Origin: an uncultured Janibacter sp.
Lineage (GTDB): Bacteria > Actinomycetota > Actinomycetes > Actinomycetales > Dermatophilaceae
DNA: 64,000 nt
Assembly: GCA_964430615.1 (NCBI GenBank)
Contig: CAYSGN010000005.1
Coordinates: 3,395 to 67,394 of the forward strand
Direction of reading: 5' to 3'
In this document: piece after piece, positions 8,301 through 34,682 of the stretch
Numbering within the stretch: position 1 is the stretch's first letter
Layout: each line of letters starts with the position of its first letter
Position numbers and translations under genes: made by a program
The notes under the pieces: model-generated
The model's input: the letters and a program-made list of their open reading frames with translations, nothing else
What the model was told of the DNA's origin: nothing
Databases searched by the model: none

Positions 8301-8309
8301 GCGCGTGGC

Positions 8310-9266
8310 CTACTTGATGACGACCGGGTTGACGGGCGACCCGCTGCCCTGCGCCACCTTCAGCGGGGCCGCGGCGTAGAAGACCTCGTAGCAGCCGTCC
8401 TCGGCGCAGTCCGCCGCCAGCTCCTCCAGGTCGGTCAGCTCGGTGAAGGCGACCCCGAGGTTGCGCATGAGGGCGTTGTGCAGCACGAGCGCGGCTCCGC
8501 TGTCGGGGTCGGTGGTCACCTCGTTGGCGATGGTGTCGGTCACGAGGTTGGGGATCTCCATGTCGGCGAACCACCGGACGAGCTCCGGGCTGTAGACCAG
8601 GCCCGGCTCGCAGAAGTCCTCGTAGAAGGCGTCACCGAGCTCGAAGAAGAGCTGGAGGTAGTTCGTGCGGATGAGCAGGATGTCGCGCTTGCGCAGCTCG
8701 ACGCCCTGCTGCTCCGCACATGCCTGGAGGTCCTCGTGGGTGAAGGTCTCGGCGGACTCGAGGCTCTCCTTGCCGCGGAAGCGAGCCATGTCCAGGAGCA
8801 CCGCCCGGCCGACGATCCCTCGCTCGGCGATCGGCTGGACACTGGCCTTCTCCATACCGCCGACGGTGGTCCGGGCGTCGAAGCCGTTCCACAGCTTGCC
8901 GTCGTACCAGACGTGGCCGAGCGCGTCGTACTGCGTGGACCCCTGGAGGAAGCACTCCATCTTGTCGTCGGCGTAGTGCAGCCCGCCCGGGAACTGAGGA
9001 GCATCGTCGCCGTCCCAGGTCGCCTCGTCCATGATCTGGGTGCGCACGGCAGGCTTGCGGCTGGGCCAGACGGGGTCGCCCTTCGGGTCGCCGATGAGGC
9101 GTTGGACGGCGAAGACCTTGCCGGACCTGATGAGTCCGGCGGCGGCGATCACCTGCTCCGGCCCCAGGTAGTTCAGGCTTCCGACCTCGTCCTCCGGACC
9201 CCACTTGCCCCAGTTGGACGGGGAGCCCTCGAGCAGGTCGGTCAGGTCGGGCGTTGCGTCGGTCAT
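8310..9266 (-). CDS. Cyclase-family (kynurenine formamidase-like) hydrolase
   Basis: NWGKWGPEDEVGSLNYL, QGSTQYDALGH, GIVGRAVLLD, DILLIRT, GSGSPVNPVVIK. Confidence 0.8.
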   Translation of the reverse strand: MTDATPDLTDLLEGSPSNWGKWGPEDEVGSLNYLGPEQVIAAAGLIRSGKVFAVQRLIGDPKGDPVWPSRKPAVRTQIMDEATWDGDDAPQFPGGLHYADDKMECFLQGSTQYDALGHVWYDGKLWNGFDARTTVGGMEKASVQPIAERGIVGRAVLLDMARFRGKESLESAETFTHEDLQACAEQQGVELRKRDILLIRTNYLQLFFELGDAFYEDFCEPGLVYSPELVRWFADMEIPNLVTDTIANEVTTDPDSGAALVLHNALMRNLGVAFTELTDLEELAADCAEDGCYEVFYAAAPLKVAQGSGSPVNPVVIK

Positions 9267-9423
9267 CGTGCTCCTCCTTGAGCGTGCGGGACGCAGCACC
9301 TCCCGAGCACTCGGTCGGTGCCGTGCAGGTGATCTCCACCGTGGCCCGTGCGGCGACGGGTGTCAACGGTTCGCGGGTGGGGCGCGCACGCCGCGGCGAC
9401 CGCCGACCCAGGGGCCGCTCGGC

Positions 9424-10770: not shown

Positions 10771-10787
10771 GGTGAAACTCCCCTGTA

Positions 10788-10805
10788 CTTGAAGGATGAT
10801 TCAAG
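10788..10805. promoter_or_regulatory. Palindromic operator, copy 1
   Basis: CTTGAA-GGATGA-TTCAAG in the MFS/ligase divergent region. Confidence 0.75.
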
Positions 10806-18825: not shown

Positions 18826-19902
18826 TCAGACGACCGGCAGCTCGACGAGGTCCGCGAGATCCGTGCGGTGCCGGTCGGGCGTGCCGAGGGCGAGCTGGTC
18901 GGCCTTGGCGCGCTTGAGGCGCGGGTGGACCGGCGCCTCCCACGTCATGCCGATGCCGCCGTGCAGCTGGAGGGCCTCCTCGGCCGCGCGGACCGCGGCG
19001 TCGGAGCAGAAGGACTGGGCGACCGCCTGGGCGATGCGCTGCTCCTCCTGCGCGGCACCGTCGGCGAGGTCACCGGCAGCCTGCCGGGCGGCCGCCTGGG
19101 TGTTGACGAGGAGGAGGTAGAGGTCGGCGAGACGGTGCTTGATCGCCTGGAAGGAGCCGATGGGCCGGGCGAACTGCACCCGGGTCTTCGCGTACTCCAC
19201 CGTCGTCTCGAGGCACCACTGCGCGAGGCCGAGCTGCTCGGAGGCGAGCAGCGCCGCACCGGCGGCGAGCCCTGCGTCGACCGCAGCGTCCGCCGTTGCA
19301 CCAGAGGAGATCTCGCGCCCCTCACCGGTCGTCGTCACGCGGGCGAGCGGCCGGGTCGGGTCAAGCGAGGTGATCGGCTCGAGGTCGACCTCGTCGCGGC
19401 CATAGGCACGAAGGGAGGTCACTCGCCCTTCGCCCGTGGTCGGCACGAGGAAGAGGTCGGCGCCGATCGCACCGGCGACCGGCTCGACGGTCCCGGTGAC
19501 GCCGCTCCACGCGCCACGGCGCGCGGTCCACGGCAGGACGAGCGTCGCCGTGCGCTCACCCGAGGCGAGCTGTGGGAGGAGCTCCTCGTCGCCGGCGGCG
19601 AGCAGGGTGGAGGTCGCGATGACGGCGCTCGTGAGGAAGGGGACGGGCGCGACCGTGCGGCCGAGCTCCTCGAGGACGACGGCCGCCTCGCGGGCGCTCG
19701 CCCCGGCCCCACCGAGGGACTCGGGCACGAGCAGGCCGGCGAGGCCGAGCTGCTCGGCGAGCGTGCGCCACAGGCCGCTGACGTCCGTGTCGGGCTCGTC
19801 GGCCAGGCGGGCGGCGAGGCCGTCGTCGAGGGCACGGGCGAGGGTCGAGCGGACGCTGGAGCGCAGCGACTCCTCGACATCGGTGTAGAGCAGATCGGTC
19901 AT
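18826..19902 (-). CDS. Acyl-CoA dehydrogenase, short partner subunit
   Basis: [31 protein letters not shown]; 4-nt overlap with upstream ACAD; no obvious catalytic Glu motif. Confidence 0.85.
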
Positions 19903-21068
19903 CGCGGCACGTCCTTGAAGGCGATCCCCTTGTCGGGGCGGTGGTCCGGGGGCAGGCCGAGCACCCGCTCGGCGATGACATTGCGCATGATCTCGCTCGT
20001 GCCACCCTCGATGCTGTTGCCCTTGGCCCGCAGGTAGCGGTAGCCCGGGCCGTGGCCGAGGAAGGAGCCTCCCTCGGGGCGGACCATGGTCCAGTCGTGG
20101 TAGGTCAGGCCCTCCTCGGGCGCGACCTCGAGGGCGAAGCCGCTCACCTGCTGCGCCTGGTGGGCGAAGGCGAGCTTCATCGCCGAGCTCTCCGGGCCGG
20201 GCTGGCCGGCCTCGAGGCCCTGGCGCAGGCGCTCACCGGCGAGGCGAGTCACCTCGGTCTCGACCCACCACTGCATGAGCTCCGCGTGGTGGCCGGGGGT
20301 GCGCACCGACGGGTCGCGGCGCCAGCGCTCGGTGACGATGCCGATCTGGCCGGCTTCGCGCTCGCTGCCCGCTCCGATGGCGACGCGCTCGTTGTTGAGG
20401 GTCGTCGTCGCGACCTTCCACCCCTCGCCGACCGCGCCGACCCGACGGGAGTCGGGCACGCGCACGCCGGTGAGGAAGACCTCGTTGAACTCCGCCTCAC
20501 CGGTGATCTGGCGCAGCGGACGCACCTCGACGCCGGGGTCGGACATGTCGACGACGAAGTAGGTCATGCCCGCGTGCTTCGGCACGGAGGTGTCGGTGCG
20601 GGCCAGGAGGATCGCGAACTGGGCGTTGTGCGCGCCGGAGGTCCACACCTTCTGCCCGTCGACGACCCACTCGTCGCCCTCGCGGACGGCGCGGGTCGCG
20701 ACGCCGGCGAGGTCCGAGCCGGCACCGGGCTCGCTGAAGAGCTGGCACCAGATCTCGGTGCAGGCGAAGAGCGGTCGCAGGAAGCGCTCCTGCATCTCGG
20801 GCGTGCCGAAGGCGATCATCGTCGGTGCGGCCATGCCGAGACCGATGCTGTTGCGTCCGACGTCCGGTCGCGGCGCGCCGGCGGCCTCGAGGAGGGCGTC
20901 GACCTCGAGCTGGCGCCCGCGGGCCAGGCCCAGTCCCCCCTTCCCCTCCGGGAAGTGCACCCAGGCGAGCCCGGCGTCGAACTGCGCGCCGAGGAACTCG
21001 GCGGGAGGCGTCGTGCTGGGGTCGTGACTCGCGAGGAGCTCCTCGACCCGCTGCTTCAGCTCAGGCAT
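19899..21068 (-). CDS. Acyl-CoA dehydrogenase, catalytic subunit
   Basis: [42 protein letters not shown]. Confidence 0.9.
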
Positions 21069-22278
21069 GCTGCGTCATCCTCCGGATCTCGTGGCGGGCG
21101 AGGGCGTTCTTGTGCACCTCGTCGGGGCCGTCGGCGAAGCGCAGGGTGCGCACCTGGGCGTACCACTCGGCGACGGGGAAGTCCTGGCTCAGGCCGCCGC
21201 CGCCGTGCACCTGCACCGCCTTGTCGACGATCCACTCGACGGTCGACGGGGCAGCGATCTTGATCGCCTGGATCTCGGTGTGCGCGCCCTTGTTGCCCAC
21301 GGTGTCCATGAGCCAGGCGGCCTTGAGGGTGAGCAGGCGCAGCTGCTCGATGCGCACCCGCGACTCGGCGATCCAGTCCCGGATGACGCCCTGGTCGGAC
21401 AGCGGCTTGCCGAAGGCGACGCGGCTCGCGGCCCGCTCGATCATGAGCTCGAGGGAGCGCTCGGCGATGCCGATGAGCCGCATGCAGTGGTGGATGCGGC
21501 CGGGGCCGAGGCGGGCCTGCGCGATGGCGAAGCCGGAGCCCTCCTCACCGATGAGGTTGCTCGCCGGCACCCGCACGTCGGTGAAGTCGATCTCGGCGTG
21601 CCCGCCGTGGTCGCGGTCGTCGTAGCCGAAGACCTTCATCCCGCGGCGCACCTCGACGCCCGGAGTGTCCCGCGGTACGAGGATCATCGACTGCTGCTTG
21701 TGACGGTCGGCCGACGGGTCGGTCTTGCCCATGAGGATGAAGACCTTGGCGTTGGGGTTCATCGCGCCGGAGATGTACCACTTGCGGCCGTTGATGACGT
21801 ACTCGTCGCCGTCGCGGACGATCGAGGTCTCGATGTTGGTCGCGTCCGAGCTGGCGACGCGCGGCTCGGTCATCGCGAAGGCGGAGCGGATCTCGCCGGC
21901 GAGGAGCGGGGTGAGCCACTGCTCCTTCTGCTCGTCGGTGCCGAACATGTGCAGCACCTCCATGTTGCCGGTGTCCGGCGCCGCGCAGTTGGTCGCGACC
22001 GGCGCGATGTGCAGGCTGCGACCGAGGATCTCGCACAGCGGCGCGTACTGGAGGTTGGTCAGGCCCGCGCCGTCCTCGCCGGGGAGGAAGAGGTTCCACA
22101 GCCCCTGGCTGCGGGCGGCCTCCTTCGCCGGCTCGATGATCGGCGGCGGCGACCAGCGGTCGGGCGCCGCGTCGAGCTGCTCCTGGTAGGTCGCCTCGAT
22201 GGGGTAGACGTGCTCGTCCATGAAGGCGGTGAGCCGCTCCTGCAGCTCGGCTGTCGTGGCGTCGGTGGAGAAGTCCAC
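21061..22278 (-). CDS. Acyl-CoA dehydrogenase (ACAD10/11-like subfamily)
   Basis: [54 protein letters not shown]. Confidence 0.9.
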
Positions 22279-22294: not shown

Positions 22295-23821
22295 TCAGGT
22301 GGTGGGGGCGGCGGCCCGGGCGGGCCGCTCGCCGGTGCTCGAGATGTCGTCGCGGTCGATCTGCCGCTTGAGGATCTTGCCGGTCGCTCCCTTGGGCAGG
22401 GCCTCGACGAAGCGGTAGATGCGCGGGACCTTGTAGGCCGCGACCCGCTCCTCGAGCCAGGCGCGCAGTGCGCCGGCCTCGATGGTGCGGCCCGGCTGCG
22501 GGGTGACGACGGCGGCGATCTCCTCGCCGAGACGCTCGTCGGGGACGCCGATGACGGCGGCCTCGAGGACGTCGGGGTGGCCGTAGAGGACCTCCTCGAC
22601 CTCGCGCGGGTAGACGTTGTAGCCGCCGCGGATGACGAGGTCCTTCATCCGGTCGACGATCCACAGGTCGCCGTCCTCGTCCATCCGGCCGATGTCACCG
22701 GTGAAGAACCACTCACCGTCGCGGACCTGAGCGGTCGCGTCGGGGCGGCCCCAGTACTCACGCATGACGACCGGTCCGGCGATGGCGACCTCGCCGACCT
22801 CGCCCGGGGGCAGGTGGCGGTGCTGCTCGTCGACGATCGAGAGCTTGCAGCCGGCGAGGGCGCGGCCGACGCTCATCTCCTTGCGCGGGTGGATGGCGCG
22901 ATTGAAGCTCGCGGCGCCTGTCGTCTCGCTCAGGCCGTAGCCGTCGAGGACGAGGGCGCCGAAGCGGTCCCGGAAGGCCTTGGCGACCTCGAGGGGAAGG
23001 GCGGCGCCGCCCGAGCAGGCCAGGCGCAGCTGGGTGAAGTCCTCGGCGGTGAGGTCGGTGTCGGCGTGGAGCATGGCATTCCACATCGTCGGCACCCCCG
23101 CGAGCGCGGTGAGCCGCTGCTCGGCGGCGAGGCGCAGCAGCGCACCGGGGTCGAAGGGACGCAGCAGGCTGAGCGTCGCGCCCGGCGTGAAGGTCGTGAA
23201 CATCACCGCGGCCTGGCCGAAGACGTGGAAGAGTGGAAGGGCGGTGCCCATGCGGTCCTCGCTCGTCACCTCGAGCGCGTCGGCGAAGCCGGCGCCACAG
23301 GCCAGGAGGTTGCCGTGGGTGAGGACGGCTCCCTTCGGCGCACCGGTCGTGCCGGAGGTGTAGAGCAGGACGGAGGCGTCGTCGGCCTCCGCCGGCACGG
23401 GGTCGGGTGCGCCCTGCGGCTCGGGGACGCAGCCGGGCTCGAGGAGCCACAGGCCGAGGCCGGCGGCGGCAGCGACCGCGCTGACGGCCGCGTGGTCCTC
23501 GTGCCAGCCGACCGCGAGGGTGCACCCGGCGTCGTCGACGAAGTGGGTGAGCTCGCGGGCCGTGCACAGCGGGTTGACGGTGACGGCGGTCGCGCCGAGC
23601 GCGAGGATCGCGTGGTAGGCGAGGACGAACTCGGCGCTCGTCGGCACGACGACGAGGACCCGGTCACCGGGGCCGACCCCGCGCCCGGAGAGCTCCTCCA
23701 TCGCGCCACGCACGCCCGTGCGCAGCTGCGCCCAGGTCCAGGACCGCTCGCCCTCGCGCAGAGCGACCGCGTCGGGCGTCTCGTCGGCCCAGCGCCAGAC
23801 GAGACCGGCGGCGTTGGCCAT
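22295..23821 (-). CDS. Long-chain fatty acid-CoA ligase
   Basis: [38 protein letters not shown]. Confidence 0.9.
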
Positions 23822-24636
23822 CAGGCGTCTCCCTTCAGGTGGCGCTGGTAGCGCTGCATTCCGTGGATCCAGCGGTCGTGGTCGTCGACCTTGCGCCGGA
23901 GGAACTCGCGGACCTCGGCGTGCGGGGTGATGAGGAAGGTCCCCTCCTGCACCGCGACGAGGACCTGGTCGGCGACGTCGCTCGGGGCGAGCACCTCACC
24001 GGCGCCGGTGACGGCCGCGGCGGCGACCCGGCCCCCTTCGCCTCCGGAGGAGGTCATGCCCGAGCGCAGCAGGTCGGTGTCGACGCCCATCGGGCACAGG
24101 CAGCTGACGCCGATGCCGTCGTCGCCGTAGGTGACGGCGAGCCACTCGGCGAAGCCGACGGCGCCGTGCTTGGAGACGGAGTAGGTCGCCGACCCGATCT
24201 GGGTGAGCAGGCCTGCGGCAGAGGCGGTCGAGACGAAGTAGCCGCTCCCCCGCTCGACCCAGCCGGGCACGAGCCGGCGGGCGGAGCGCACGTGGGCGAG
24301 GAGGTTGACGTCGAGCGCCAGCTGCCACTGCTCGTCGGTGGCGTCGAGACCGGAGCCGTCGCCGACACCGGCATTGGCGAAGAAGAGGTCGACGGGACCG
24401 AAGTGCTCCTCCGCCGCGGCGACCATGGCGTCGATGACGGTCTCACTCGAGGCGTCACCCGCGACGGCGACGGCTCCGAGCCGCTCGGCCGTCGCGGTGA
24501 GGCGCTGCTCGTCGAGGTCCGAGACGACGACCCGGGCGCCTGCCGCGATGAGCGACTCGGCGATGGCCGCGCCGATGCCGCCGGCGGCGCCGGTGACGAC
24601 CGCGACCTTGTCCGTGAGCTGCATGCCGGTGCCCAT
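23821..24636 (-). CDS. SDR-family oxidoreductase
   Basis: TGAAGGIG, NAG, YSVSK; start overlaps the upstream stop (TGATG). Confidence 0.88.
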   Translation of the reverse strand: MGTGMQLTDKVAVVTGAAGGIGAAIAESLIAAGARVVVSDLDEQRLTATAERLGAVAVAGDASSETVIDAMVAAAEEHFGPVDLFFANAGVGDGSGLDATDEQWQLALDVNLLAHVRSARRLVPGWVERGSGYFVSTASAAGLLTQIGSATYSVSKHGAVGFAEWLAVTYGDDGIGVSCLCPMGVDTDLLRSGMTSSGGEGGRVAAAAVTGAGEVLAPSDVADQVLVAVQEGTFLITPHAEVREFLRRKVDDHDRWIHGMQRYQRHLKGDA

Positions 24637-25397
24637 CAGTCGCACGGCCCGCCGGCGACGTAGAGGACCTGGCCGGTGGTGAAGCCGGCACCCTCGCTGA
24701 CGAAGAAGGAGACGGCGTGGGCGATGTCCGCCGGGGCGCCGGTGCGGGCGACGGCGGCCTGCTCGCTCGCCATCTTCTTCAGCTCGTCGAAGCCGATGCC
24801 GATGCGCGCCGCGGTCTCGGCGGTCATCTCGGTCTCGATGAAGCCGGGGGCGATGGCATTGGCCGTCACGCCGAACTTGCCGAGCTCGATGGCCAGCGTC
24901 TTGGTGAAGCCCTGCATCCCGGCCTTGGCCGCGGAGTAGTTGACCTGGCCGCGGTTGCCCTGGGCGGAGGTCGAGGAGAGGTTGACGATGCGGCCGAAGC
25001 GCTCCTGGGTCATGTAGGCCTGGCAGGCCTTGGTCATGAGGAAGGCGCCGCGCAGGTGGACGGCCATGACGGCGTCCCAGTCCTCGACGGACATCTTGAA
25101 GATGAGGTTGTCGCGGATGATGCCGGCGTTGTTGACGAGGACCGTCGGCGCGCCGAGCTCGTCCGCGATGCGCTGGACGGCCGCCTCGACCTGCTCGGCG
25201 TCGGAGACGTCGGCACCGACGGCGAGCGCTCGACCACCGGAGGCGGTGATCTCCTCGACGACGGGCACGCAGGCCGACTCGTCGAGATCGAGGACGGCGA
25301 CGGCCATGCCGTCGGCCGCGAGGCGGCGGGCGACACCCGCGCCGATCCCCCGGGCCGCGCCGGTGACGACGGCGACGCGCTGCTGGTCAGTGGTCAT
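24636..25397 (-). CDS. SDR-family oxidoreductase (FabG-like)
   Basis: TGAARGIG, NNAGIIRD, NYSAAK, NAIAPGFI. Confidence 0.88.
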   Translation of the reverse strand: MTTDQQRVAVVTGAARGIGAGVARRLAADGMAVAVLDLDESACVPVVEEITASGGRALAVGADVSDAEQVEAAVQRIADELGAPTVLVNNAGIIRDNLIFKMSVEDWDAVMAVHLRGAFLMTKACQAYMTQERFGRIVNLSSTSAQGNRGQVNYSAAKAGMQGFTKTLAIELGKFGVTANAIAPGFIETEMTAETAARIGIGFDELKKMASEQAAVARTGAPADIAHAVSFFVSEGAGFTTGQVLYVAGGPCD

Positions 25398-25434
25398 GAG
25401 AGCTCCTGTGGTCTCGACTGCCGATGTGCGCTTC

Positions 25435-25470
25435 ACCGTACTTGAATCCGGCTTCAAGTTCAACTAGGTT
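25435..25470. promoter_or_regulatory. Overlapping divergent promoters containing operator copy 3 (25441-25458)
   Basis: Operator CTTGAA-TCCGGC-TTCAAG; minus promoter TTGAAC-N17-TACGGT; plus promoter TTGAAT-N17-TAGGTT. Confidence 0.75.
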
Positions 25471-25504: not shown

Positions 25505-25975
25505 ATGACCCAGACCGCACAGCAGCGCCCGACCTCCGTCCAGGACCTCAAGGACCTCGTCGGCGTCGAGCTCGGGCCCACCGAGTGGCACGTCGTCGAC
25601 CAGGCGAAGATCGACGCCTTCGCCGACCTCACGGGTGACCACCAGTGGATCCACGTCGACCCGCAGCGGGCGGCGGACTCCCCCTTCGGCTCGACGATCG
25701 CGCACGGTCTCTACTCGCTCTCGCGCACGCCGGCCTTCCTCGAGGAGCTCATGGCCTTCGACGGCTTCGCGCACAGCCTCAACTACGGCTACGACAAGGT
25801 GCGCTTCATCCACCCGCTGCCCGTGGACTCGCGGATCCGTCTGCGCGCCACCCTCACCTCCGTCGAGGAGACCGCGCCCGGCGCGGTCAAGGTCGTGACG
25901 ACGCTGACCGTCGAGGCCGACGGCATCGACAAGCCGATCCTCGTCGCCGAGTCGATCGGCCGCTTCAGCTCCTGA
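25505..25975 (+). CDS. MaoC-family (R)-specific enoyl-CoA hydratase
   Basis: FADLTGDHQWIHVD, TIAHG, NYGYDKVRF. Confidence 0.88.
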   Translation: MTQTAQQRPTSVQDLKDLVGVELGPTEWHVVDQAKIDAFADLTGDHQWIHVDPQRAADSPFGSTIAHGLYSLSRTPAFLEELMAFDGFAHSLNYGYDKVRFIHPLPVDSRIRLRATLTSVEETAPGAVKVVTTLTVEADGIDKPILVAESIGRFSS

Positions 25976-26099: not shown

Positions 26100-26600
26100 T
26101 CAGCGGCGGACGCCGATGGCGCCGGAGAGCGGCAGCTGCCAGGGCAGCGCCCGGTGCTCGGCGACGAGCGCGTCGATCCGCTCCGCAAGGTCGGGCGGGA
26201 AGGGGGCGGAGCGCCGGGTCGCGAGGTCGACGTGCCCCTCGAGCACCTCGAGCGTGTTGGCGATCCGCCCCGTCGTGCGGTTGACGAGGATCGAGATGCC
26301 GTGGAAGACCTTGTCCCCACGGTCGAGCCACCGCACGTGCGCGGAGACCTCCTCACCGACGTGCACCTCGGCGAGGAAGCGCAGGTGCTGCTCCATGCTG
26401 AAGACGCTCAGCCCGCGCCCGCTCCGGTAGGCGTCGTCGAGCCCCATCTGCTCGAGCGCGGCCCCTGCGGCCCGGATGTGGAAGCCGTAGAAGTGGGCGA
26501 CGTTGACGTGCCCGTTGCCGTCCTCCCACTCGGGGCCGGCGACGGTGCGCACGGCCGCCGGGATCTGGTCGACCTCCTCGACGGTGACGGACGCGCTCAC
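26100..26600 (-). CDS. Thioesterase-family protein
   Basis: EWEDGNGHVNV hot-dog thioesterase motif; GTGA overlap with the upstream gene. Confidence 0.8.
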   Translation of the reverse strand: MSASVTVEEVDQIPAAVRTVAGPEWEDGNGHVNVAHFYGFHIRAAGAALEQMGLDDAYRSGRGLSVFSMEQHLRFLAEVHVGEEVSAHVRWLDRGDKVFHGISILVNRTTGRIANTLEVLEGHVDLATRRSAPFPPDLAERIDALVAEHRALPWQLPLSGAIGVRR

Positions 26601-27550
26601 GGGACGAGGACGACCTTGCCGGTCACCGTGCGCCCCTCGAGCGAGGCGATCGCCGTCGCGGCGTCCTCGAGCGGGTGCGTGGCACCGACGACCGGTCGCA
26701 GGGCTCCGCTGCGCAGGTGCGGGAGCATCGCCTCCCACTCACGGGCGATGTGACCCGGCTTGGACAGCGCGTAGGCGCCCCAGCCGACGCCGACGACCGA
26801 GACGTTGTTGAGCAGCAGCCGGTTGACCTTGACCTCGGGGATCGAGCCGGCGGTGAAGCCGATGACGAGCAGGCGACCGTGCTCGCGCAGCGAGCGCAGC
26901 GAGTCGGTGAAGCGGTCGCCGCCGACGGGGTCGACGACGACGTCGACCTGCGCCTTGCCGACCGTCTCGAGGAAGCCGTCCGCGAGGACCACCTCGTCGG
27001 CACCCGCGGCCCGGGCGATCTCCCCCTTCGCCTCGGTCGAGACGACACCGATGACGCGGCCGGCACCGAAGGCCTTGGCCATCTGGATGGCCGCGGTCCC
27101 GATGCCGCCGGCGGCCCCGTGGACGAGGACGGTCTCACCCTCGGCCAGGTGGCCGCGCTCGACGAGCGCGAAGTAGACGGTCGCGTAGTTGAAGGTGAAG
27201 GAGGCCGCCTCCTCGAAGCCGACCTCGTCGGGCAGCGCGAAGGTGAGGTCGGGGCGGGCGAGCGCCTTCTCGGCGAAGCCGCCCAGGAGCGTGAGCGCGG
27301 CGACCCGATCACCCACGGACAGCCCGCTGCCCTCGGGGGCGGCGGTGACGACGCCGGCGACCTCGGCCCCCGGGACGAAGGGGAGGTCGGGCTTGATCTG
27401 GTAGAGCCCCCGGGTCTGGAGCAGCTCGGGGAAGGCGACCCCGGCCGCCTTGACGTCGATGGCGACGAACCGGTCGTCGCTCGGGTCGGGCAGGTCGACG
27501 ACCTCGACCGCCTCGGGCCCGTCGAGGGAGGAGATGTGGATGGCGCGCAT
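26597..27550 (-). CDS. NADPH:quinone oxidoreductase-family MDR
   Basis: PFVPGAEVAG, VLVHGAAGGIG, DPVGG, GRLLVIGF. Confidence 0.88.
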   Translation of the reverse strand: MRAIHISSLDGPEAVEVVDLPDPSDDRFVAIDVKAAGVAFPELLQTRGLYQIKPDLPFVPGAEVAGVVTAAPEGSGLSVGDRVAALTLLGGFAEKALARPDLTFALPDEVGFEEAASFTFNYATVYFALVERGHLAEGETVLVHGAAGGIGTAAIQMAKAFGAGRVIGVVSTEAKGEIARAAGADEVVLADGFLETVGKAQVDVVVDPVGGDRFTDSLRSLREHGRLLVIGFTAGSIPEVKVNRLLLNNVSVVGVGWGAYALSKPGHIAREWEAMLPHLRSGALRPVVGATHPLEDAATAIASLEGRTVTGKVVLVP

Positions 27551-27570: not shown

Positions 27571-28572
27571 TCAGAGCTGGAGGAGGAGCTTGCCCGTGTT
27601 GACCCCGTCGAAGAGGCCGAGCAGGGCGTCGGGGAAGGCAGCGACGCCACCCTCGAGGACGGTCTCGGTCGCGACGAAGCGGCCGTCGGCGATGAGCTCG
27701 CTGATGCCGGCGATGGCCTCGGGGTAGCGGTCGGCGTAGTCCATGACGAGGAAACCTTGCATGCTCGCGCGGAAGACGAGCAGGGCCATGTAGCGACGCG
27801 GCCCCTCGGCGAGGGTCTCGTCGTTGTACGTCGAGATCGCGCCGCAGATGGCGATGCGGGCACCGTGGGCGAGGTTGGCCAGGGCGGCGTCGAGCAGCTC
27901 GCCGCCGACGTTGTCGAAGTAGACGTCGACCCCGTCGGGGGCCGCGGCGCGGACCTGGCGCAGCAGGTCGCCCTCGCGCCGGTCGATGACCTCGTCGAGG
28001 CCGAGCTCGCGCAGCCATTCGACCTTGTCCGGGCCGCCCGCGACGCCGATGACCCGGCAGCCCTTGGCCTTGGCGAGCTGGGCGACGGTGCTGCCGACGG
28101 CTCCGGCCGCGGCGGAGACGAGCACGGTGTCGCCCGGCTGCGCCCGACCGACGTCCTCGAGGCCGAACCACGCGGTCATGCCGGGCATGCCGAGCGCGCC
28201 CAGCCAGGTGCTCATCGGGGCGACGTCGAGGTCGAGGCGGGTGACTCCCTTCCCGTCGGAGATCGCGTACTCGCGCACCCCGAAGGTGCCGCTCACGACG
28301 TCGCCGACGGCGAAGTCGTCGTGCTGCGAGGCGATGACCGTGCCGGCGCCGAAGGCGCGCATGACGGCCCCGATCTTCACCGGCGGCAGGTAGGAGCGCA
28401 CGTCGTTGAGCCAGCCGCGCATCGCCGGGTCGAGGGAGATCTGCTGCATCTCGACGAGGAACTCTCCGGGCCCCGGGTCCGGGACCTCGCTCGTGGCGAG
28501 CTCCCAGGTGCTCGCGTCGGGGCGGCCCTGGGGGCGGGCGGCGAGGCGGATCTCCTGCGAGGTCCGGGTCAT
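27571..28572 (-). CDS. NADP-dependent oxidoreductase (PGR/LTB4DH-like alkenal reductase)
   Basis: SLDPAMRGW, LGMPGMTAWFGL, VSAAAGAVGS, YFDNVGG, NTGKL. Confidence 0.88.
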   Translation of the reverse strand: MTRTSQEIRLAARPQGRPDASTWELATSEVPDPGPGEFLVEMQQISLDPAMRGWLNDVRSYLPPVKIGAVMRAFGAGTVIASQHDDFAVGDVVSGTFGVREYAISDGKGVTRLDLDVAPMSTWLGALGMPGMTAWFGLEDVGRAQPGDTVLVSAAAGAVGSTVAQLAKAKGCRVIGVAGGPDKVEWLRELGLDEVIDRREGDLLRQVRAAAPDGVDVYFDNVGGELLDAALANLAHGARIAICGAISTYNDETLAEGPRRYMALLVFRASMQGFLVMDYADRYPEAIAGISELIADGRFVATETVLEGGVAAFPDALLGLFDGVNTGKLLLQL

Positions 28573-28619
28573 GGGGACTCCTGAGGTCGGGCGAGCGGGT
28601 CGTCGCCACCCTCCCACAA

Positions 28620-28671
28620 CGTGAATCGAGGTTCAACTACTCTTGAACCGAGATTCATGTCCGGCTACGGT
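28620..28671. promoter_or_regulatory. Operator copies 4 and 5 plus plus-strand promoter
   Basis: CGTGAA-TCGAGG-TTCAAC (28620) and CTTGAA-CCGAGA-TTCATG (28642), 22 bp apart; TTGAAC-N17-TACGGT. Confidence 0.7.
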
Positions 28672-28707
28672 CGGGGGCGGACCTCCCCTTCGACACCAAG
28701 GACAGCC

Positions 28708-29493
28708 ATGGACTTCTCCGCCCTGTTTTCCCTCGACGGTCGCGTCGCCCTCGTCACCGGAGGCTCCCGCGGCATCGGCCGGATGATCACCGAGGGCCTC
28801 CTCGCCCAGGGGGCGCGGGTCTACATCACCGCCCGCAAGGAGGACGCCTGCCGCGCGACGGCCGCTGAGCTGTCGCAGCAGTACGGCGAAGGGCGGTGCG
28901 TCGCCCTCCCTTGTGACGTCTCGACGACCGAGGGCATCGCGAGCCTGCTCGCCGCCTTCGGCGAGCACGAGGACCACCTCGACGTCCTCGTCAACAACGC
29001 CGGCGCGGCGTGGGGCGCGCCCTTCGACGAGTTCCCCGAGAGCGGCTGGGACAAGGTGATGGACCTCAACGTCAAGGCGCCCTTCTTCCTCACCCAGGCG
29101 GCCAAGGGCCTGCTCTTCGCCGGCCGCGAGCGCAGCGGGCACCTCGCCAAGGTCATCAACATCGCCTCGATCGACGGCCTCTCGCTCAACCCGGGGCAGA
29201 CCTACAGCTACCACGCGAGCAAGGCGGGGGTCGTCCACCTCACCAAGCGGATGTCGGTCGAGCTGGCACCGCAGGGCATCGTCGTCAGCGCCATCGCGCC
29301 CGGCGCCTTTGCCTCGACGATGAACAAGGACGCCCGCGACCACGCCGACGAGATCTCCGCGCAGATCCCCTCCGGCCGGATCGGCCGCCCCGAGGACATG
29401 GCAGCCGCCGCGGTCTACCTCGCCTCGGACGCCGGTGACTACGTCGTCGGCAGCACGCTCACCGTCGACGGTGGGGTCAACATCGCGCGTTGA
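28708..29493 (+). CDS. SDR-family oxidoreductase
   Basis: TGGSRGIG, NNAG, YSYHASK, SAIAPG; ATG at 28708. Confidence 0.88.
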   Translation: MDFSALFSLDGRVALVTGGSRGIGRMITEGLLAQGARVYITARKEDACRATAAELSQQYGEGRCVALPCDVSTTEGIASLLAAFGEHEDHLDVLVNNAGAAWGAPFDEFPESGWDKVMDLNVKAPFFLTQAAKGLLFAGRERSGHLAKVINIASIDGLSLNPGQTYSYHASKAGVVHLTKRMSVELAPQGIVVSAIAPGAFASTMNKDARDHADEISAQIPSGRIGRPEDMAAAAVYLASDAGDYVVGSTLTVDGGVNIAR

Positions 29494-29572: not shown

Positions 29573-30253
29573 TCAGTCGGCGCGCAGCTCGGGGCTGGTG
29601 AGCCCGAGCGCGTTGGTCCACAGGCGCGTGGCGGTGTCGACGAGCCCATCGACGTCGTCGACAGCGCCACCGCCGAAGGACTCGTAGGCCAGGCGGGCGA
29701 CCATGCCGGAGAGGGCCATCGCGGCCATCGTCGCGTCGACGCCCCGGTCGGCGAGGCCCCGCTCCTGGAGATCGGCGATCGCCCGGGCGTTGCGGTGGAC
29801 GAAGGCGAGGCTGCGTGCGTTGCGCACCTCGCGGAAGCGCGGGTCGACGGCGGCGACCTGTTGGAGCAGCAGGTTGAGCCGCGCATTGCGCCGGTAGGCC
29901 TCGAAGTAGGCCCGGTTGCTCGCCGCGATGATCGCGACCGGGTCGTCGGTCGCCTCCATGCGGTTGGTGCCCGGGTGGAGCATCTCGCTCTGCGCCTCGT
30001 GGAGGACCGCGGCGAAGACCTCGTCCTTGCTGTCGAACCACGTGTAGAAGCTGCCGATCGAGCACTTCGCCTCGGCGGCGATGTCGACCAGGCGCGAGTC
30101 GACGTAGCCGTCCCGCTCGAAGACGGTGCGGGCGGCGGCGATGAGCGCGTCGCGGGTGCGCTTGCCGCGCGGCGTCTGGGGCTGGGTCCCCAGCTTCGCC
30201 GCATCGACGAGGTCGGGGACCTCGCTGGCGGCGGTGTCGCTCTCGCTCGGCAT
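29573..30253 (-). CDS. TetR/AcrR family transcriptional regulator
   Basis: RTRDALIAAARTVFERDGY...DIAAEAKCSIGSFYTWFDSKDEVF HTH; possible leaderless start (TAGGGT-N7-ATG). Confidence 0.92.
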   Translation of the reverse strand: MPSESDTAASEVPDLVDAAKLGTQPQTPRGKRTRDALIAAARTVFERDGYVDSRLVDIAAEAKCSIGSFYTWFDSKDEVFAAVLHEAQSEMLHPGTNRMEATDDPVAIIAASNRAYFEAYRRNARLNLLLQQVAAVDPRFREVRNARSLAFVHRNARAIADLQERGLADRGVDATMAAMALSGMVARLAYESFGGGAVDDVDGLVDTATRLWTNALGLTSPELRAD

Positions 30254-30263
30254 GGCGGCCACC

Positions 30264-31301
30264 CTAACCCGCCTCGTCGAGCACGACGTGCGCACAGGTG
30301 ACGAGCTCGTCGACGGCCGCGGCCGGGATGACCCCGGCCGCGGTGAGGTTGCGTGGGTCGTCCTGCTGACGCCGACGCACCCCCTCGAGGATGATCGCGA
30401 GCTTCCACAGCCCCAGCCCGTGCCAGAAGGTGACCGCCGAGACGTCCCGACCGGAGACGGCGGCGTAGTGCTCGACGAGCTCGGACCGGGTCGCGAAACC
30501 CGGTACCGACGAGGCGTCGAAGCGCATCGTCGGCGGGTCGCCGGCCATCGGCCAGTACGCGAGCAGGGTCCCGAGGTCGGCCAGGGGGTCGCCCAGCGTC
30601 GACAGCTCCCAGTCGAGGATCGCGCGCACCGTGGCCTCGTGCGGGTCGATGATGACATTGCGCAGGTGGCTGTCCCCGTGGACGAGCGCCACCTCGCCGG
30701 GCCCGGGGTCGCTGGCGGAGAGCCGCCTGGTGAGCCGCTCGAGGTCCGGCAGGTCACGGGTCCGCGAGAGGTCCCACTGACGCGACCACCTGCGCAGCTG
30801 CCGTGCGCCGTAGGGCTTGTGGCTGGCGAGGTCGGCGAGCCCGGCGTCGTCGAGGTCGACCGCGTGGATCCGGGCCAGGGTGTCGACGAGCGAGAGGCCG
30901 GCGCGGTGCCGAGCGGCCGGGGGGAGTCGCTCGGCGTCCGCGCGGCTGTCGAGGACCTCCCCGTCGACGAAGGAGACCGCGAGCAGGGGCACGTCGCTCA
31001 CGGTGGGGTCATCGCAGAGCCCGTGCACGACGGGGAGCGGGACATCCGTGCCCTGGAGGGCGGAGAGGATCCGGTGCTCACGCGCCACGTCGTGGGCGGA
31101 GGCGAGCAGCTCGCCCAGGGGTGGACGCCGCAGGACCAGGCGCTCCCCCTTCGCGTCCGTCGCCAGATACGTGAGGTTGGACTGCCCGAGGCCGACCCGG
31201 GCGAAGGACAGGGGCGGCTGCATGCCGATCCCCAACCCCTCGATCCATCCGGTCACGGCCTCGGCGTCCAGGCCCTCGGTGACGTCGCTCTCGTGGCTCA
31301 T
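30264..31301 (-). CDS. APH-family phosphotransferase (ACAD10/11 kinase-like)
   Basis: GQSNLTY, RRPPLG..SAHDVAREHRIL, HGDSHLRNV, LDWELSTLGDPLADLG. Confidence 0.88.
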   Translation of the reverse strand: MSHESDVTEGLDAEAVTGWIEGLGIGMQPPLSFARVGLGQSNLTYLATDAKGERLVLRRPPLGELLASAHDVAREHRILSALQGTDVPLPVVHGLCDDPTVSDVPLLAVSFVDGEVLDSRADAERLPPAARHRAGLSLVDTLARIHAVDLDDAGLADLASHKPYGARQLRRWSRQWDLSRTRDLPDLERLTRRLSASDPGPGEVALVHGDSHLRNVIIDPHEATVRAILDWELSTLGDPLADLGTLLAYWPMAGDPPTMRFDASSVPGFATRSELVEHYAAVSGRDVSAVTFWHGLGLWKLAIILEGVRRRQQDDPRNLTAAGVIPAAAVDELVTCAHVVLDEAG

Positions 31302-31326
31302 GGCGCTCCTCCCGGGCGTCCGTGCA

Positions 31327-32550
31327 CTACTTCGTCCGGCCCCACTCCGGCGCGCGGCGGCGGTACTCGCGGCGCGCGATGGTCCTCTTGTGCACCTCGT
31401 CGGGGCCATCGGCGAGGCGCAGGGTGCGCATGTGCGCATACCACTGGGCCAGCGGGAAGTCGTCGCTCACCCCACCGCCACCGTGCACCTGGATCGCGCG
31501 GTCGATGACCTTGAGCGCCACCTGCGGGGCAGCCACCTTGATCGCTGCGATCTCGGTCCGGGCGACCTTGTTACCGACCGTGTCCATCATGTGCGCCGTC
31601 TTGAGGGTGAGCAGCCGGGCCATCTCGATCTCGATGCGCGCCTCGGCGACCCAGTCCATGATGTTCGCCCGGTCGGCGACCGGCTCGCCGAAGGTGACCC
31701 GGGACTGCGCCCGGTCGATCATCAGGTCCAGGGCCCGCTCGGCGACGCCGATGGCGCGCATGCAGTGGTGGATGCGGCCGGGCCCCAGCCGGGCCTGGCT
31801 GATCATGAAGCCGTCGCCCTCCCCCGCGAGGAGCGCCTCCTTGGGGACCCGGACGTCCTCGAGGACGACCTCCGCGTGGCCCTCGCGGTCCTGGTAGCCG
31901 AAGACGGGCAGCCCGCGCTCGATCCTCACCCCCGGCGTGTCGAGCGGGACGACCATCATCGACTGCTGACGGTGGGTCGGTGCCTCCGGGTCGGTCTTGC
32001 CCATGACGATGAGCACCTTGCAGTTCTTGTGCAGGGCGTTCGAGGTCCACCACTTGCGACCGTTGATGACGTACTCGTCCCCGTCGCGGACCATCGAGGT
32101 CTCGATCTTCGTCGCGTCCGAGCTCGCGACGGCCGGCTCGGTCATGGCGAAGGCGGAGCGGATCTCCCCCGCGAGGAGGGGCTCCAGCCAGGTCCTCTTG
32201 TGCTCCTCGGTCCCGAAGAGGGTGAGCACCTCCATGTTGCCCGTGTCCGGCGCACTGCAGTTGATGGACTCGGGCGCGATCTCGATGCTGCGGCCGGTGA
32301 TCTCCGCCAGGTGCGCGTACTCGAGGTTGGTCAGGCCCGGGCCCCACTCGGGGTGGGGGTGGAAGAGGTTCCACAGCCCGCGGCCGCGGGCCTCGGCCTT
32401 GAGGTCCTCGAGGACCTGCGGGTGGTGGTTGGGGTCGCCGGACTCGCGCATCTGCCGGCGGTAGACGCTCTCCGCCGGGTAGACGTGCTCGTCCATGAAG
32501 GCGAGCAGGCGGTCGCGGTAGTCCTGGCCGCGGTCACTGAGGTCGAACAT
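31327..32550 (-). CDS. Acyl-CoA dehydrogenase (ACAD10/11-like subfamily)
   Basis: [46 protein letters not shown]. Confidence 0.9.
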
Positions 32551-33247
32551 CGTGGTGGTCCTTCTCCTGGCGGGTGGTGGGTGTGGTCGTGGACGAAGGG
32601 AGACCCAGCGCCTCACGGATGCGCGGGATGCTCTCCTGCGCGCTGCGATGGAAGATGCCCCGGATGCCGAGGCGTGCCGCCCCGACGAGGTTGTGCTCGA
32701 GGTCGTCGACGAGCACGCAGGCCTCGGGCCGGACCCCGAGGCGCTCGCAGGCGATCCGGTAGATCCCGCGAGAGGGCTTGCGGACACCGACCTGCCCCGA
32801 GACGACCGTGACGTCGACGAGCTCGTCGAGGTCGATACGGGCGTAGCAGTCGCGCCCGAGGGAGTTGGAGACCAGAGCGACGGGGACCCCGGCGGCCCGG
32901 ACCTCGCGCACGAGGTCGATCATCGCCCGGTCCGGGTGCAGGTGGCTGCCGAGCCGGGCGAGCAGCCCTCGTGCCTCGACGTGCGCCCCGACCTCGGAGA
33001 GTGCCGCGGCGAAGACGTCCTCGAAGCCCTCGTCGTCCAGCCGACCGAGCTCGTGCTCGACGAGCGCCGTCCGAGCAGCCTCGTGGGTCGCCAGCACGCG
33101 CAGGGCCTGGTCCGGGTCGAGCCCGGTCCCGGCCCCGAGCGCCCGGAAGGCCTCTGCCAGCGGGAGGGTGAGCACTCCCCCGAAGTCGACGAGGAGGGCA
33201 TGGGCGCGCGAGCCGGTGCCGAGGACGGGTGTGGGCGGTGACGACAC
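32534..33247 (-). CDS. HAD-superfamily phosphatase (subfamily IA)
   Basis: LVDFGGVL motif I, LVSNS, RKP, VDDL..N; GTG 33247 with GAGGAGG RBS. Confidence 0.85.
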
Positions 33248-33281
33248 GGGCGCCTCCTCATGGTTCGCGGGCACGACCACA

Positions 33282-33310
33282 GGTATACTTGAATTCAGAT
33301 TCATATACAA
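33282..33310 (-). promoter_or_regulatory. Promoter of HAD-ACAD-kinase(-TetR) operon with operator copy 6 (33288-33305)
   Basis: TTGTAT-N17-TATACC on the minus strand; operator CTTGAA-TTCAGA-TTCATA overlaps the spacer. Confidence 0.7.
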
Positions 33311-33329
33311 GGACTGCCGAGGAGACCGC

Positions 33330-34682
33330 ATCCCCACCGCCACCGTCTCACCCCAGCCGTACCGGGGCGTCCTGGCGGGCGCCTTCGCGGTGCTCTTCGG
33401 CGTGACCGGCCTGGGCAGCGCGGCCGTGGCGGTCGCCGTGCCCGCCATCTCCGACGATCTCGGTCTCACCACGGGCCGGGCCGCCCTCGTCGTCAGCTGC
33501 TACTCCCTCTCCCTGGCAGTCGGGAGCGCGGTCTTCGGCCGGCTCGGTGACCTCGTCGGCCTCCGGGCGCCGCTGCTCCTCGGGATGTCGGTCATGGTGG
33601 CCGCCGCGTGCGCCGGTGCGCTCGTGGACACCCTCCCGGCGCTCATCGCCACCCGGATGCTCCAGGGCCTCGGGGCAGCGGCCGTCCCGGTGCTGACCCT
33701 GGCCGCCGTCCAGGCACTCTTCGCCGGTGACAGCCGGGCCCGGGCCCTCGCCACCTACTCGGGGATCGGTGCCACGGTGAACACCGTCGGGCCGGTGATC
33801 GGCGCGACCCTCGTCGACCCCTTCGGCTGGCGCCCCGTGGTGGCGATCCCCGCGGTGACCCTGGCCGTCCTCCCCTTCGTCTGGCGCGACGTCCCGACCG
33901 AACGTCAGCCGGGGGCGGCCCTCGACCCCGTCGGCACCCTCCTCGTGGCGGGCGCAGCCATCGGCGCCGTGCTCTCCCTCCAGGCGGCGACCCTGGGGAC
34001 GACCACGGCGCTCGTGGGCGTGCTCCTGCTCCTCGTCGGCGCCCCGGGCGCGGCGGCGCGCTCGCGGACCCGACCCGAGGGCGTGGTGCCGCAGGCCCTG
34101 GTCCGCGACCCCAGCGCCCGCCGCAGCCTGCTGACCGCGGTCAGTCTCTCGTCGGCCTGGTTCGGGATGCTCGTGGCGATCCCGGCGGTGCTCATCGCCC
34201 ACGGCTGGACGGGGGTCGAGGTGGGGATGCTGCTGCTGCCGTGCGCCGCCCTGGGCCTGGTCGCGCCGCGCGTCACGGGCCCGGCGCTCATCGCCCTGGG
34301 GGCGGCTCGCGGTCAGCTCGTCGCAGGGGTGGGGGTGGCCGCCGCGGTCGTGTGCGCCGCGGTCGGGGTCGCCGTCGTGCAGCCGGTCCCGCTCGTCGCC
34401 GCGACCCTGCTGCTCATGCTCTCCTTCGGGCTCGGCCAGCCGGCGATGACCTCTCTCGTCGCGGACTCGGTCCCGGCGCGCACGCGCGGCAGCGCGCTCG
34501 GTCTGCTCACGCTCGTCTTCCTCCTCGGCGGCAGCCTCGGCGCCGCCACCGTCGGCGGCCTCGGCGAGACCTTCGGTTTCGCCCGCGCACTCCTGCTCCT
34601 GGCCACCCTGCCGGCTCTCGCCGCGCTCGCCTTCGCCCTCCCACGCACTCCCATCCGCACCCGAGCACAGGAGATCCCGTGA
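33330..34682 (+). CDS. MFS transporter (DHA2-like)
   Basis: FGRLGDLVG, RMLQGLGAA, about 14 hydrophobic segments; start placed at ATC 33330 behind GAGGAG (uncertain). Confidence 0.82.
   Translation: MPTATVSPQPYRGVLAGAFAVLFGVTGLGSAAVAVAVPAISDDLGLTTGRAALVVSCYSLSLAVGSAVFGRLGDLVGLRAPLLLGMSVMVAAACAGALVDTLPALIATRMLQGLGAAAVPVLTLAAVQALFAGDSRARALATYSGIGATVNTVGPVIGATLVDPFGWRPVVAIPAVTLAVLPFVWRDVPTERQPGAALDPVGTLLVAGAAIGAVLSLQAATLGTTTALVGVLLLLVGAPGAAARSRTRPEGVVPQALVRDPSARRSLLTAVSLSSAWFGMLVAIPAVLIAHGWTGVEVGMLLLPCAALGLVAPRVTGPALIALGAARGQLVAGVGVAAAVVCAAVGVAVVQPVPLVAATLLLMLSFGLGQPAMTSLVADSVPARTRGSALGLLTLVFLLGGSLGAATVGGLGETFGFARALLLLATLPALAALAFALPRTPIRTRAQEIP

Follow-up and report, generated by a model that had tools for sequence, protein, structure and literature searches.

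A Janibacter operon with separately encoded counterparts of the HAD, kinase and acyl-CoA dehydrogenase modules of ACAD10, probably serving a 4-hydroxy-acid pathway

The window analysed here, a stretch of 64,000 nucleotides from an uncultured Janibacter sp. (contig CAYSGN010000005.1 of assembly GCA_964430615.1; about 72 % GC), carries a four-gene unit on its minus strand, in which genes for a HAD-superfamily phosphatase-like protein, an acyl-CoA dehydrogenase (ACAD), an APH-fold kinase and a TetR-family regulator follow one another in the order HAD-ACAD-APH-TetR. It is probable that this operon encodes the three catalytic modules of animal ACAD10 as separate proteins, which would act in a 4-hydroxy-acid pathway with the HAD protein as a partner. 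Mammalian ACAD10 is a HAD-kinase-ACAD fusion and ACAD11 a kinase-ACAD fusion, and both act as 4-hydroxyacyl-CoA kinase and 4-phosphoacyl-CoA eliminase (PMC12440821, PMC11342911). A phosphorylation pathway of the ACAD10 type had been proposed in an earlier, sequence-only reading of this DNA; homology and co-occurrence now lend it support at their own level. Searches of the genome were carried out on the whole assembly (3.17 Mb, 274 contigs).

The first three genes had been described as adjacent and co-oriented, with the HAD gene overlapping the start of the ACAD gene, and were found in exactly this arrangement (17-nt overlap, minus strand); the TetR gene, absent from that description, is the fourth. 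Translation of the HAD gene was assigned to a GTG at 33247, with a GAGGAGG Shine–Dalgarno (SD) sequence a few bases 5′ of it, a choice that agrees with both the SD sequence and the N termini of homologues; its stop codon is TGA (32536–32534). The ACAD gene starts with ATG at 32550, inside the 3′ end of the HAD gene and preceded by GGAGAAGGA, and stops with TAG at 31327. The APH gene starts with ATG at 31301, 25 nt past the ACAD stop and preceded by GGGAGGAG, and stops with TAG at 30264, and the TetR gene starts with ATG at 30253, 10 nt past the APH stop, and ends at 29573. Each gene of the operon has its own SD sequence, and the GC content at third codon positions (GC3) of all frames is 0.88–0.92. 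Because the junctions measure −17, 25 and 10 nt, the operon has no room for a small LvaB-like open reading frame (ORF), the absence of which had been noted before and holds.

All four Acyl-CoA_dh domains of Pfam match the operon ACAD. In comparison with the PDB, it matched mouse ACAD11 (8v3u) with E=2.7e-133 and a Mycobacterium abscessus homologue (4hr3) with 6e-124, whereas ordinary ACADs followed from 1e-44. The determinants described for ACAD11 are R626, R631, the HCMR motif (H634, R637) and the catalytic D753, and the phosphate-binding cluster of R626 and HCMR is unique to the ACAD10/ACAD11/LvaC clade (PMC12440821). The R...HCMR segment of the operon ACAD is identical to the aligned segment of ACAD11, with the equivalents of R626, R631, H634 and R637 all kept, and its LADGPDEVH aligns with LADGPDEVH of ACAD11, such that the equivalent of D753 is present (Asp replaces the usual Glu). 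At the position of the catalytic Asp, E-G-T is found in the ordinary ACADs of this genome, and the genome's six other ACADs contain neither the R...HCMR segment nor LADGPDEVH; the R...HCMR segment was found in at least 46 ACADs of related loci. The operon ACAD is thus a member of the ACAD10/ACAD11/LvaC clade, as had been suggested, and is predicted to eliminate phosphate.

The kinase matched Pfam APH with 1.3e-46 and, among solved structures, 9o56 (1.2e-51), 3dxp (1e-41) and the kinase domain of ACAD11 (2.5e-32). The elements of the kinase core are present and aligned: VLRRPPLG (β3 Arg), AREH (αC Glu), HGDSHLRN (catalytic Asp and Asn; residues 206–213) and LDWE (metal site). The Arg of AREH and the Arg of GARQL align with the CoA contacts R86 and R176 of ACAD11 and would be expected to serve likewise. 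These matches and residues bear out its assignment to the ACAD10/11 type. Its catalytic motif is unusual: elsewhere (ACAD11, 3dxp, the C. thermarum kinase) the motif reads HGD/HYD-x-K/R-L-D/N-N. The form HGD[SF]H[LI]RN is kept throughout the Janibacter/Nocardia/Rhodococcus clade, and more distant HAD-linked kinases have HGDY[KR]LDN.

Related genes occur elsewhere in the genome. A second ACAD11-type gene in the window, found with tblastn and 65 % identical to the operon ACAD, keeps the R...HCMR segment and has FADGPDEVH; it has no adjacent kinase gene, its neighbours being genes for an acyl-CoA ligase on one side and an ordinary ACAD on the other (Table 1). In all, the genome contains three ACAD11-type ACADs, of which the third lies on contig C81, and also three kinases of the clade of the operon kinase. 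One of these kinases (C50:11315–12235) runs into an ACAD fragment that stops short of the contig end, and a further one lies at C13:22329–23168.

The HAD protein has LVDFGGVLT as motif I, in which the second Asp of DxD is Gly (D-x-G), RKPS as motif III and VDDLEHN as motif IV. Across 21 homologues with identities down to 46 %, D21, K157 (of RKPS) and D181 are invariant, and D182 and N186 are invariant or almost so; every homologue examined, 21 close and 12 distant, has D[FYW]GGV as motif I. The closest homologues are from Janibacter (75–78 % identity). The top-scoring NCBIfam family, below its cutoff, was TIGR02247 (“epoxide hydrolase N-terminal domain-like phosphatase”). An AlphaFold2 model (pLDDT 88.8, pTM 0.81) has a multi-helix cap, and the top 18 PDB matches of this model in Foldseek were all human soluble epoxide hydrolase (sEH; E ∼1e-12, TM 0.70–0.81), among them the isolated phosphatase domain 5mwa (TMt 0.81). 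In the HAD domain of ACAD10, too, the second Asp of DxD is missing and the first is kept (PMC11342911), and the lipid-phosphatase domain of sEH is the nearest structural neighbour of that domain as well (PMC13596139). On both counts the HAD protein behaves as the proposed counterpart of the ACAD10 HAD; the link is drawn from the published statement on the motif, from TIGR02247 and from the fold rather than from a direct alignment with the ACAD10 domain; no ACAD10 chain was among the PDB matches. In a public protein collection the protein is shorter (P0001, 213 aa): its gene call begins inside the frame, past motif I, and therefore lacks the nucleophile Asp of DFGGV; homologues and the SD sequence support the longer form of 237 aa.

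Co-occurrence of the genes in other genomes had been named beforehand as the check on which the proposal could fail. To collect close relatives, peptide patterns specific to the HAD were searched for in a single genome of each species; 94 genomes were found and 80 loci were kept. All 94 genomes are Actinomycetota and include Janibacter, Dietzia, Nocardioides, Nocardia, Rhodococcus, Gordonia and Aeromicrobium as well as Streptomyces, Actinomadura, metagenome-assembled genomes (MAGs) of Mycobacterium, and Solirubrobacterales. Neighbours were counted within ±6 kb of the HAD gene by using tblastn with defined queries; this replaced a clustering of GC3-filtered ORFs, in which overlapping stop-to-stop frames merged families and lower-GC Rhodococcus genes were missed. 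An ACAD11-type ACAD (≥60 % identity) was present in 55/80 loci, the kinase in 40/80, both in 32/80 and at least one of them in 63/80. Gene orders include HAD-ACAD-APH, ACAD-x-APH-MDR-HAD (MDR, medium-chain reductase) and SDR-HAD-ECH-ACAD-SDR-APH-TetR (SDR, short-chain dehydrogenase/reductase; ECH, enoyl-CoA hydratase), and this variation points to a functional, not merely inherited, linkage.

The rest of the phylum was represented by an even sample of 250 other Actinomycetota, in which a HAD relative was defined by E≤1e-30 (35–46 % identity). Such a relative was present in 35 genomes, 33 of which had the kinase and 25 an ACAD11-type enzyme, and absent from 215, where kinase and ACAD11-type enzyme were found in 82 genomes each (Fisher p, uncorrected for phylogeny, 1.4e-10 for HAD with kinase and 3.5e-4 for HAD with ACAD11-type). 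Both parts, kinase and ACAD, are present in about 43–46 % of the sampled Actinomycetota. Kinase and HAD genes are no more than ∼1 kb apart in 23 of the 35 HAD genomes, these 23 spanning seven families; the gap is below 200 bp in 21 of those 23, and APH usually precedes HAD on the same strand. The twelve kinase-adjacent HAD proteins that were fetched all have D[FYW]GGV, RKP and VDD, and their kinases have HGDY[KR]LDN. The genes do co-occur in other genomes, as the proposal demanded (63/80 loci; kinase in 33/35 sampled HAD genomes), and the HAD-ACAD-APH arrangement is not due to chance.

Natural fusions were also found. In an exhaustive search of 1.84 billion representatives, the best 150 matches of the HAD protein were nearly all stand-alone HAD proteins of ∼220 aa, but P0250 is a natural HAD-APH fusion of 575 aa with the motifs DWGGV and HGDYRLDN. 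Its cluster has 56 members from MAGs of Actinomycetota and bears the IMG name “epoxide hydrolase-like predicted phosphatase”. In the loci with this fusion (L085–L088, 6001–7728, + strand), a gene for acyl-CoA thioesterase II comes next and no ACAD gene is nearby. A word-based homologue search with the HAD region of the fusion returned prokaryotic proteins only. A HAD-SDR fusion (P0286, 477 aa) was observed as well.

A further link leads to the catabolism of γ-lactones and N-acyl-homoserine lactones by the quorum-quenching qsd operon of Rhodococcus erythropolis, which encodes the TetR regulator QsdR, the phosphotriesterase-like lactonase (PLL) QsdA and the acyl-CoA ligase QsdC (PMC6262395). At a locus of Rhodococcus erythropolis NBRC 15567 (L049, 186–12574, and also L081), a TetR_C_36 regulator gene is divergent from a gene for a 323-aa phosphotriesterase-family lactonase (4e-128 against PPH of Mycobacterium tuberculosis, 4if2), followed by genes for a 551-aa ligase, a major facilitator superfamily (MFS) transporter, a TetR regulator and HAD. 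Past the HAD gene lie a ligase (− strand), TetR, MaoC (− strand) and then SDR, ECH, ACAD11-type ACAD, SDR, kinase and SDR genes, which places SDR-ECH-ACAD11-type-SDR-kinase within 10–14 kb of the qsd-like genes. The first three genes of the locus are apparently qsdR, qsdA and qsdC, as matched by architecture and length, not by sequence comparison with strain R138. In Janibacter relatives, a PLL gene is found ∼3 kb upstream of the HAD gene; in this assembly, CoxG and molybdopterin oxidoreductase genes lie upstream of the MFS gene instead. These linkages suggest that, in the rhodococcal γ-lactone pathway, the downstream half consists of the 4-hydroxyacyl-CoA kinase/eliminase route. In the qsd literature searched, no account was found of the steps of γ-lactone degradation that follow ring opening, and the literature search found no paper joining 4-hydroxyacyl-CoA, lactonase and Rhodococcus.

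The activities, substrate range, HAD role and regulation that we propose would combine as follows. A 4-hydroxy acid would come from an opened γ-lactone or a reduced 4-oxo or enone precursor, or would be taken up directly, and would be activated to the CoA ester by a neighbouring acyl-CoA ligase. The APH-fold kinase, predicted to act on 4-hydroxyacyl-CoA, would use ATP to phosphorylate the 4-hydroxyl group. The 4-phosphate of the resulting 4-phosphoacyl-CoA would be held by the R...HCMR cluster of the ACAD11-type flavoenzyme, the catalytic Asp and FAD of which would eliminate phosphate to yield 2-enoyl-CoA for β-oxidation. The HAD protein would be an sEH-type, Mg-dependent, phosphatase-like partner of the kinase that has kept the nucleophile Asp, the Lys and the DD pair and lost the general-acid Asp; most likely it would slowly hydrolyse the phospho-intermediate or restrain the kinase, and thereby keep the phospho-intermediate from building up. 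A hydrolytic HAD might clear 4-phosphoacyl-CoA, or the free 4-phospho acid once a thioesterase has released it, whenever the eliminase is limiting. The TetR regulator would repress the operon until a metabolite of the pathway appears.

Within this scheme, a phosphatase would be in keeping with the nucleophile, Lys and DD motifs of the HAD protein, with the likeness of its fold to a lipid phosphatase, with its coupling to the kinase and with the occasional thioesterase neighbour, and the missing general acid together with the data on ACAD10 fit a slow enzyme or a kinase brake; the “proofreading” role suggested by the sequence-only reading is a guess. More tentatively, and with our judgement tending somewhat to the other side, the D-x-G-G HAD may be the dedicated phosphatase or brake of ACAD10/11-type kinases in general. 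The two would then form an ancient couple, animal ACAD10 would be the fusion of a three-gene set like the one found here, and the set together with lactonase and ligase would be the missing downstream half of the actinobacterial qsd pathway.

Several observations weigh against the proposed pathway. The score of the HAD protein (85.2 bits) is under the cutoff of TIGR02247 (125.4 bits), and the HAD domain of ACAD10 showed negligible phosphatase activity on 4-phosphohexanoyl-CoA (PMC11342911), for which reason a phosphatase acting on the intermediate may be the wrong reading. In distant Actinomycetota, the APH-HAD pair is often not next to an ACAD gene, and 10 of the 35 HAD genomes had no ACAD11-type match at E≤1e-90; since the ACAD is often encoded elsewhere in the genome, the kinase, and not the whole three-enzyme set, is the tightest partner of the HAD protein. 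No lactonase gene is present in the window, the only PLL gene of the genome being found on a contig of 1,041 bp (C272) that is barely longer than the gene, which is 71–75 % identical to those of Janibacter and Rhodococcus. Finally, the window kinase has its best solved relative in the C. thermarum protein, which was reported to be a 1-O-alkylglycerol kinase with K216 as an essential residue (PMC13596139), and the site of K216 (HYDYKLNN) is occupied by His in the window kinase (HGDSHLRN) and by Lys or Arg in ACAD11 and 3dxp.

This last relationship leads to the reading of kinase and HAD as a glycerolipid pair, with the kinase acting on monoalkyl- or monoacylglycerols, the HAD on short-chain lipids of the lysophosphatidate type, and the ACAD using some other substrate, as has been put forward for ACAD10 in ether-lipid salvage. 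A preprint of 2026 assigns kinase and HAD of ACAD10 to ether-lipid metabolism: prokaryotic homologues of the ACAD10 kinase phosphorylated chimyl alcohol in vitro, and the HAD of Caenorhabditis elegans ACAD10 dephosphorylated 1-O-alkyl-2-acetyl-glycerophosphate (PMC13596139). Besides the C. thermarum kinase as best PDB match, the closeness of the HAD fold to the sEH lipid phosphatase and the many APH-HAD pairs and HAD-APH fusions without an adjacent ACAD gene would suit such a pair. However, an ACAD with the full 4-phosphate-binding motif is translationally coupled within the operon, the arginines for CoA contact are kept in the kinase, and the very residue that is essential in the alkylglycerol kinase is replaced by His. 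The surrounding genes here and at 80 related loci belong to acyl-CoA catabolism (ligases, ECH, MaoC, thiolase, thioesterases, lactonase), glycerolipid genes are absent, and the ether-lipid reading fits this context poorly. We therefore regard a glycerolipid pair as quite unlikely.

That the HAD protein is a non-catalytic, allosteric brake of the kinase, with the rest of the pathway unchanged, also seems unlikely, if slightly less so. The general-acid Asp (+2) is Gly in every HAD member, mutation of the remaining HAD Asp of ACAD10 raised the kinase activity while phosphatase activity was negligible (PMC11342911), and the immediate adjacency of APH and HAD genes and their fusions fit a physical complex. 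On the other hand, members at 35–78 % identity show little or no variation in the nucleophile Asp, in motif II, in the Lys of motif III and in the DD of motif IV, as one would expect if selection maintained an active site, and the HAD of C. elegans ACAD10 is an active Mg-dependent phosphatase (PMC13596139). The idea of unrelated neighbours, in which a housekeeping HAD phosphatase, an ordinary β-oxidation ACAD and an antibiotic-type APH merely stand side by side, draws on the size and commonness of all three families and on weak NCBIfam matches of the kinase to APH(3′) and macrolide phosphotransferases. Those matches are far under the cutoff (36 vs 205 bits), and a role of the kinase in aminoglycoside or macrolide resistance was rejected. 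As the ACAD has motifs specific to ACAD10/11, the linkage persists across classes of Actinomycetota under differing gene orders, and fused forms occur, this idea is effectively refuted by the synteny and motif results and is given a very low probability. The 4-hydroxy-acid pathway with a HAD partner remains our preferred reading.

The operon lies at the end of a region of the window (∼6.6–33.2 kb) dense in genes of acyl-CoA metabolism, with four acyl-CoA ligases, a single-chain acyl-CoA carboxylase, a thiolase, two further ACADs, SDRs, a MaoC hydratase, a thioesterase and an enone reductase of the PTGR1/curcumin-reductase type (Table 1). Nearby SDR and ligase genes had been suggested as suppliers of the LvaD and LvaE roles; both are present, and in relatives ligase and SDR genes directly flank the HAD gene. 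The SDR gene that follows the TetR gene is kept in 15 related loci. The SDR encoded at 23821–24645 resembles the usual HAD-adjacent SDR (58 % identity to that of locus L023, tblastn), and the ligase encoded at 22295–23995 is the best match in its own genome (49–51 % identity) to the HAD-adjacent ligases of L044 and L049. Among the 80 loci, TetR was found near HAD in 54, the HAD-adjacent type of SDR in 38, acyl-CoA ligase in 35, phosphotriesterase-family lactonase in 27, enone reductase in 22, MaoC in 18, MFS in 16 (in the same position in Janibacter, Dietzia and Marihabitans) and thiolase in 12. Enoyl-CoA hydratase recurs near HAD as well, and in some Rhodococcus loci acyl-CoA thioesterase II is encoded directly upstream of it. 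The QsdC-like ligase of R. erythropolis has its best match in this genome (54 %) in the ligase encoded at 6654–8309, whose gene is followed by those of a hydrolase and an MFS transporter; the three genes may be another uptake and activation unit related to hydroxy acids or lactones (6654–10800).

Table 1. Position of the operon and of neighbouring features in the window.
Feature	Position	Strand	Remarks
MFS transporter, transcribed divergently	33330..34682	+	Pfam MFS_1 1.7e-38
Intergenic region between the divergent HAD and MFS genes	33248..33329	.	sequence read directly
HAD-superfamily phosphatase-like protein	32534..33247	-	237 aa; Pfam Hydrolase 2.8e-13, HAD_2
ACAD11/LvaC-type acyl-CoA dehydrogenase-fold enzyme	31327..32550	-	407 aa; predicted 4-phosphoacyl-CoA phosphate eliminase
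APH-fold small-molecule kinase, ACAD10/11 type	30264..31301	-	345 aa; predicted 4-hydroxyacyl-CoA kinase
TetR-family regulator	29573..30253	-	last gene of the operon; Pfam TetR_N, EthR_C
SDR oxidoreductase adjoining the TetR gene	28621..29493	+	Pfam adh_short 2.8e-48; candidate LvaD-like reductase or other dehydrogenase
Medium-chain reductase, PTGR1/curcumin-reductase (alkenal/one reductase) type	27571..28617	-	NCBIfam NF058644 4.9e-104, TIGR02825 1.6e-61, both below cutoffs
4HBT_2 thioesterase	26100..26738	-	Pfam 4.6e-21
MaoC-type enoyl-CoA hydratase	25505..25975	+	Pfam 2.5e-22
Two SDR genes	23821..25463	-	Pfam; FabG-like 24636-25463, SDR 23821-24645
Acyl-CoA ligase	22295..23995	-	Pfam AMP-binding 1.2e-85; candidate LvaE-like activating enzyme
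Second ACAD11-type paralogue	21109..22248	-	tblastn
Ordinary ACAD	19899..21074	-	
MFS transporter	9424..10800	-	
“Putative cyclase” family hydrolase	8310..9362	-	
Acyl-CoA ligase	6654..8309	-	

Between the divergent HAD and MFS genes lies an AT-rich, near-palindromic stretch, TTGTATATGAATCTGAATTCAAGTATAC (∼33286–33313). Scans of the operon and its upstream region for consensus promoters, terminators and inverted repeats found nothing and did not flag this stretch; the palindrome was spotted by eye, and the stretch might be a promoter or an operator of the TetR protein. On the other side of it, the MFS gene has a GAGGAG SD sequence within 33319–33332 (+ strand). The first in-frame ATG, GTG or TTG past this sequence would remove the first transmembrane helix; the best-placed candidate start is an ATC at 33330, 5 nt past the SD sequence, which would be a non-canonical start codon.

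Pairs of kinase and ACAD are already known from bacteria, and the operon is a new member of a known bacterial and mammalian system. Split bacterial pairs, LvaA/LvaC of P. putida among them, have been shown biochemically to phosphorylate 4-hydroxyacyl-CoA and then eliminate phosphate (PMC11342911, PMC12440821), and the split kinase and ACAD of Burkholderia pseudomallei replaced the ACAD10 domains in vitro (PMC11342911). With ACAD10 and ACAD11 the operon shares all three modules, the R...HCMR segment and catalytic Asp of the ACAD, and the catalytic and CoA-contact residues of the kinase; with ACAD10 in particular it shares a HAD with only the first Asp of DxD, an sEH-phosphatase-like fold and a helical cap. 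Unlike in ACAD10, the modules are separate polypeptides encoded in the order HAD-ACAD-kinase rather than HAD-kinase-ACAD, and a TetR regulator is added; unlike in ACAD11, the kinase motif HGDSHLRN has His and Arg in place of Lys and Asp. Pseudomonas putida's lva operon is described, in the accounts of Rand et al. 2017 given by later papers (PMC12440821, PMC11342911), as encoding the kinase LvaA, LvaB, the ACAD LvaC, the SDR LvaD and the ligase LvaE. The Janibacter operon resembles it in joining a split kinase and an LvaC/ACAD11-type flavoenzyme, with SDR and ligases nearby, but has no LvaB and an extra HAD gene, and its SDR and ligase are encoded outside the operon (the SDR adjacent on the other strand, the ligase 7 kb away).

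According to Rashan et al., the lva operon has no counterpart of the ACAD10 HAD (PMC12440821). In the papers on ACAD10/11 and the qsd literature searched, we found neither a free-standing D-x-G-G HAD described as a conserved, sometimes fused, bacterial kinase partner nor a placement of the kinase/ACAD/HAD module beside qsd-type lactonase and ligase genes; the conserved bacterial HAD partner thus appears to have been undescribed so far. The function of the ACAD10 HAD is disputed, one group seeing a non-catalytic kinase brake and another an ether-lipid phosphatase, and a free-standing bacterial HAD tied to an ACAD10/11-type kinase offers simple proteins and tractable genetics for settling the role of this module.

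The N-terminal phosphatase domain of sEH (EPHX2; 5mwa, 1vj5) is the best structural match of the operon HAD, which also falls in the neighbourhood of TIGR02247; the two differ in that identity is ∼20 % and the operon HAD is not fused to an epoxide hydrolase. sEH presumably has the full DxD motif, as opposed to D-x-G in the operon HAD. As to the qsd operon, the likeness lies in R. erythropolis, where the qsd-like genes stand directly upstream of MFS-TetR-HAD, whereas the window has no lactonase gene beside the module. The recurrent linkage to lactonase and ligase points to a way in which γ-lactone degradation could be completed after ring opening in actinobacteria, the biocontrol agent Rhodococcus erythropolis among them.

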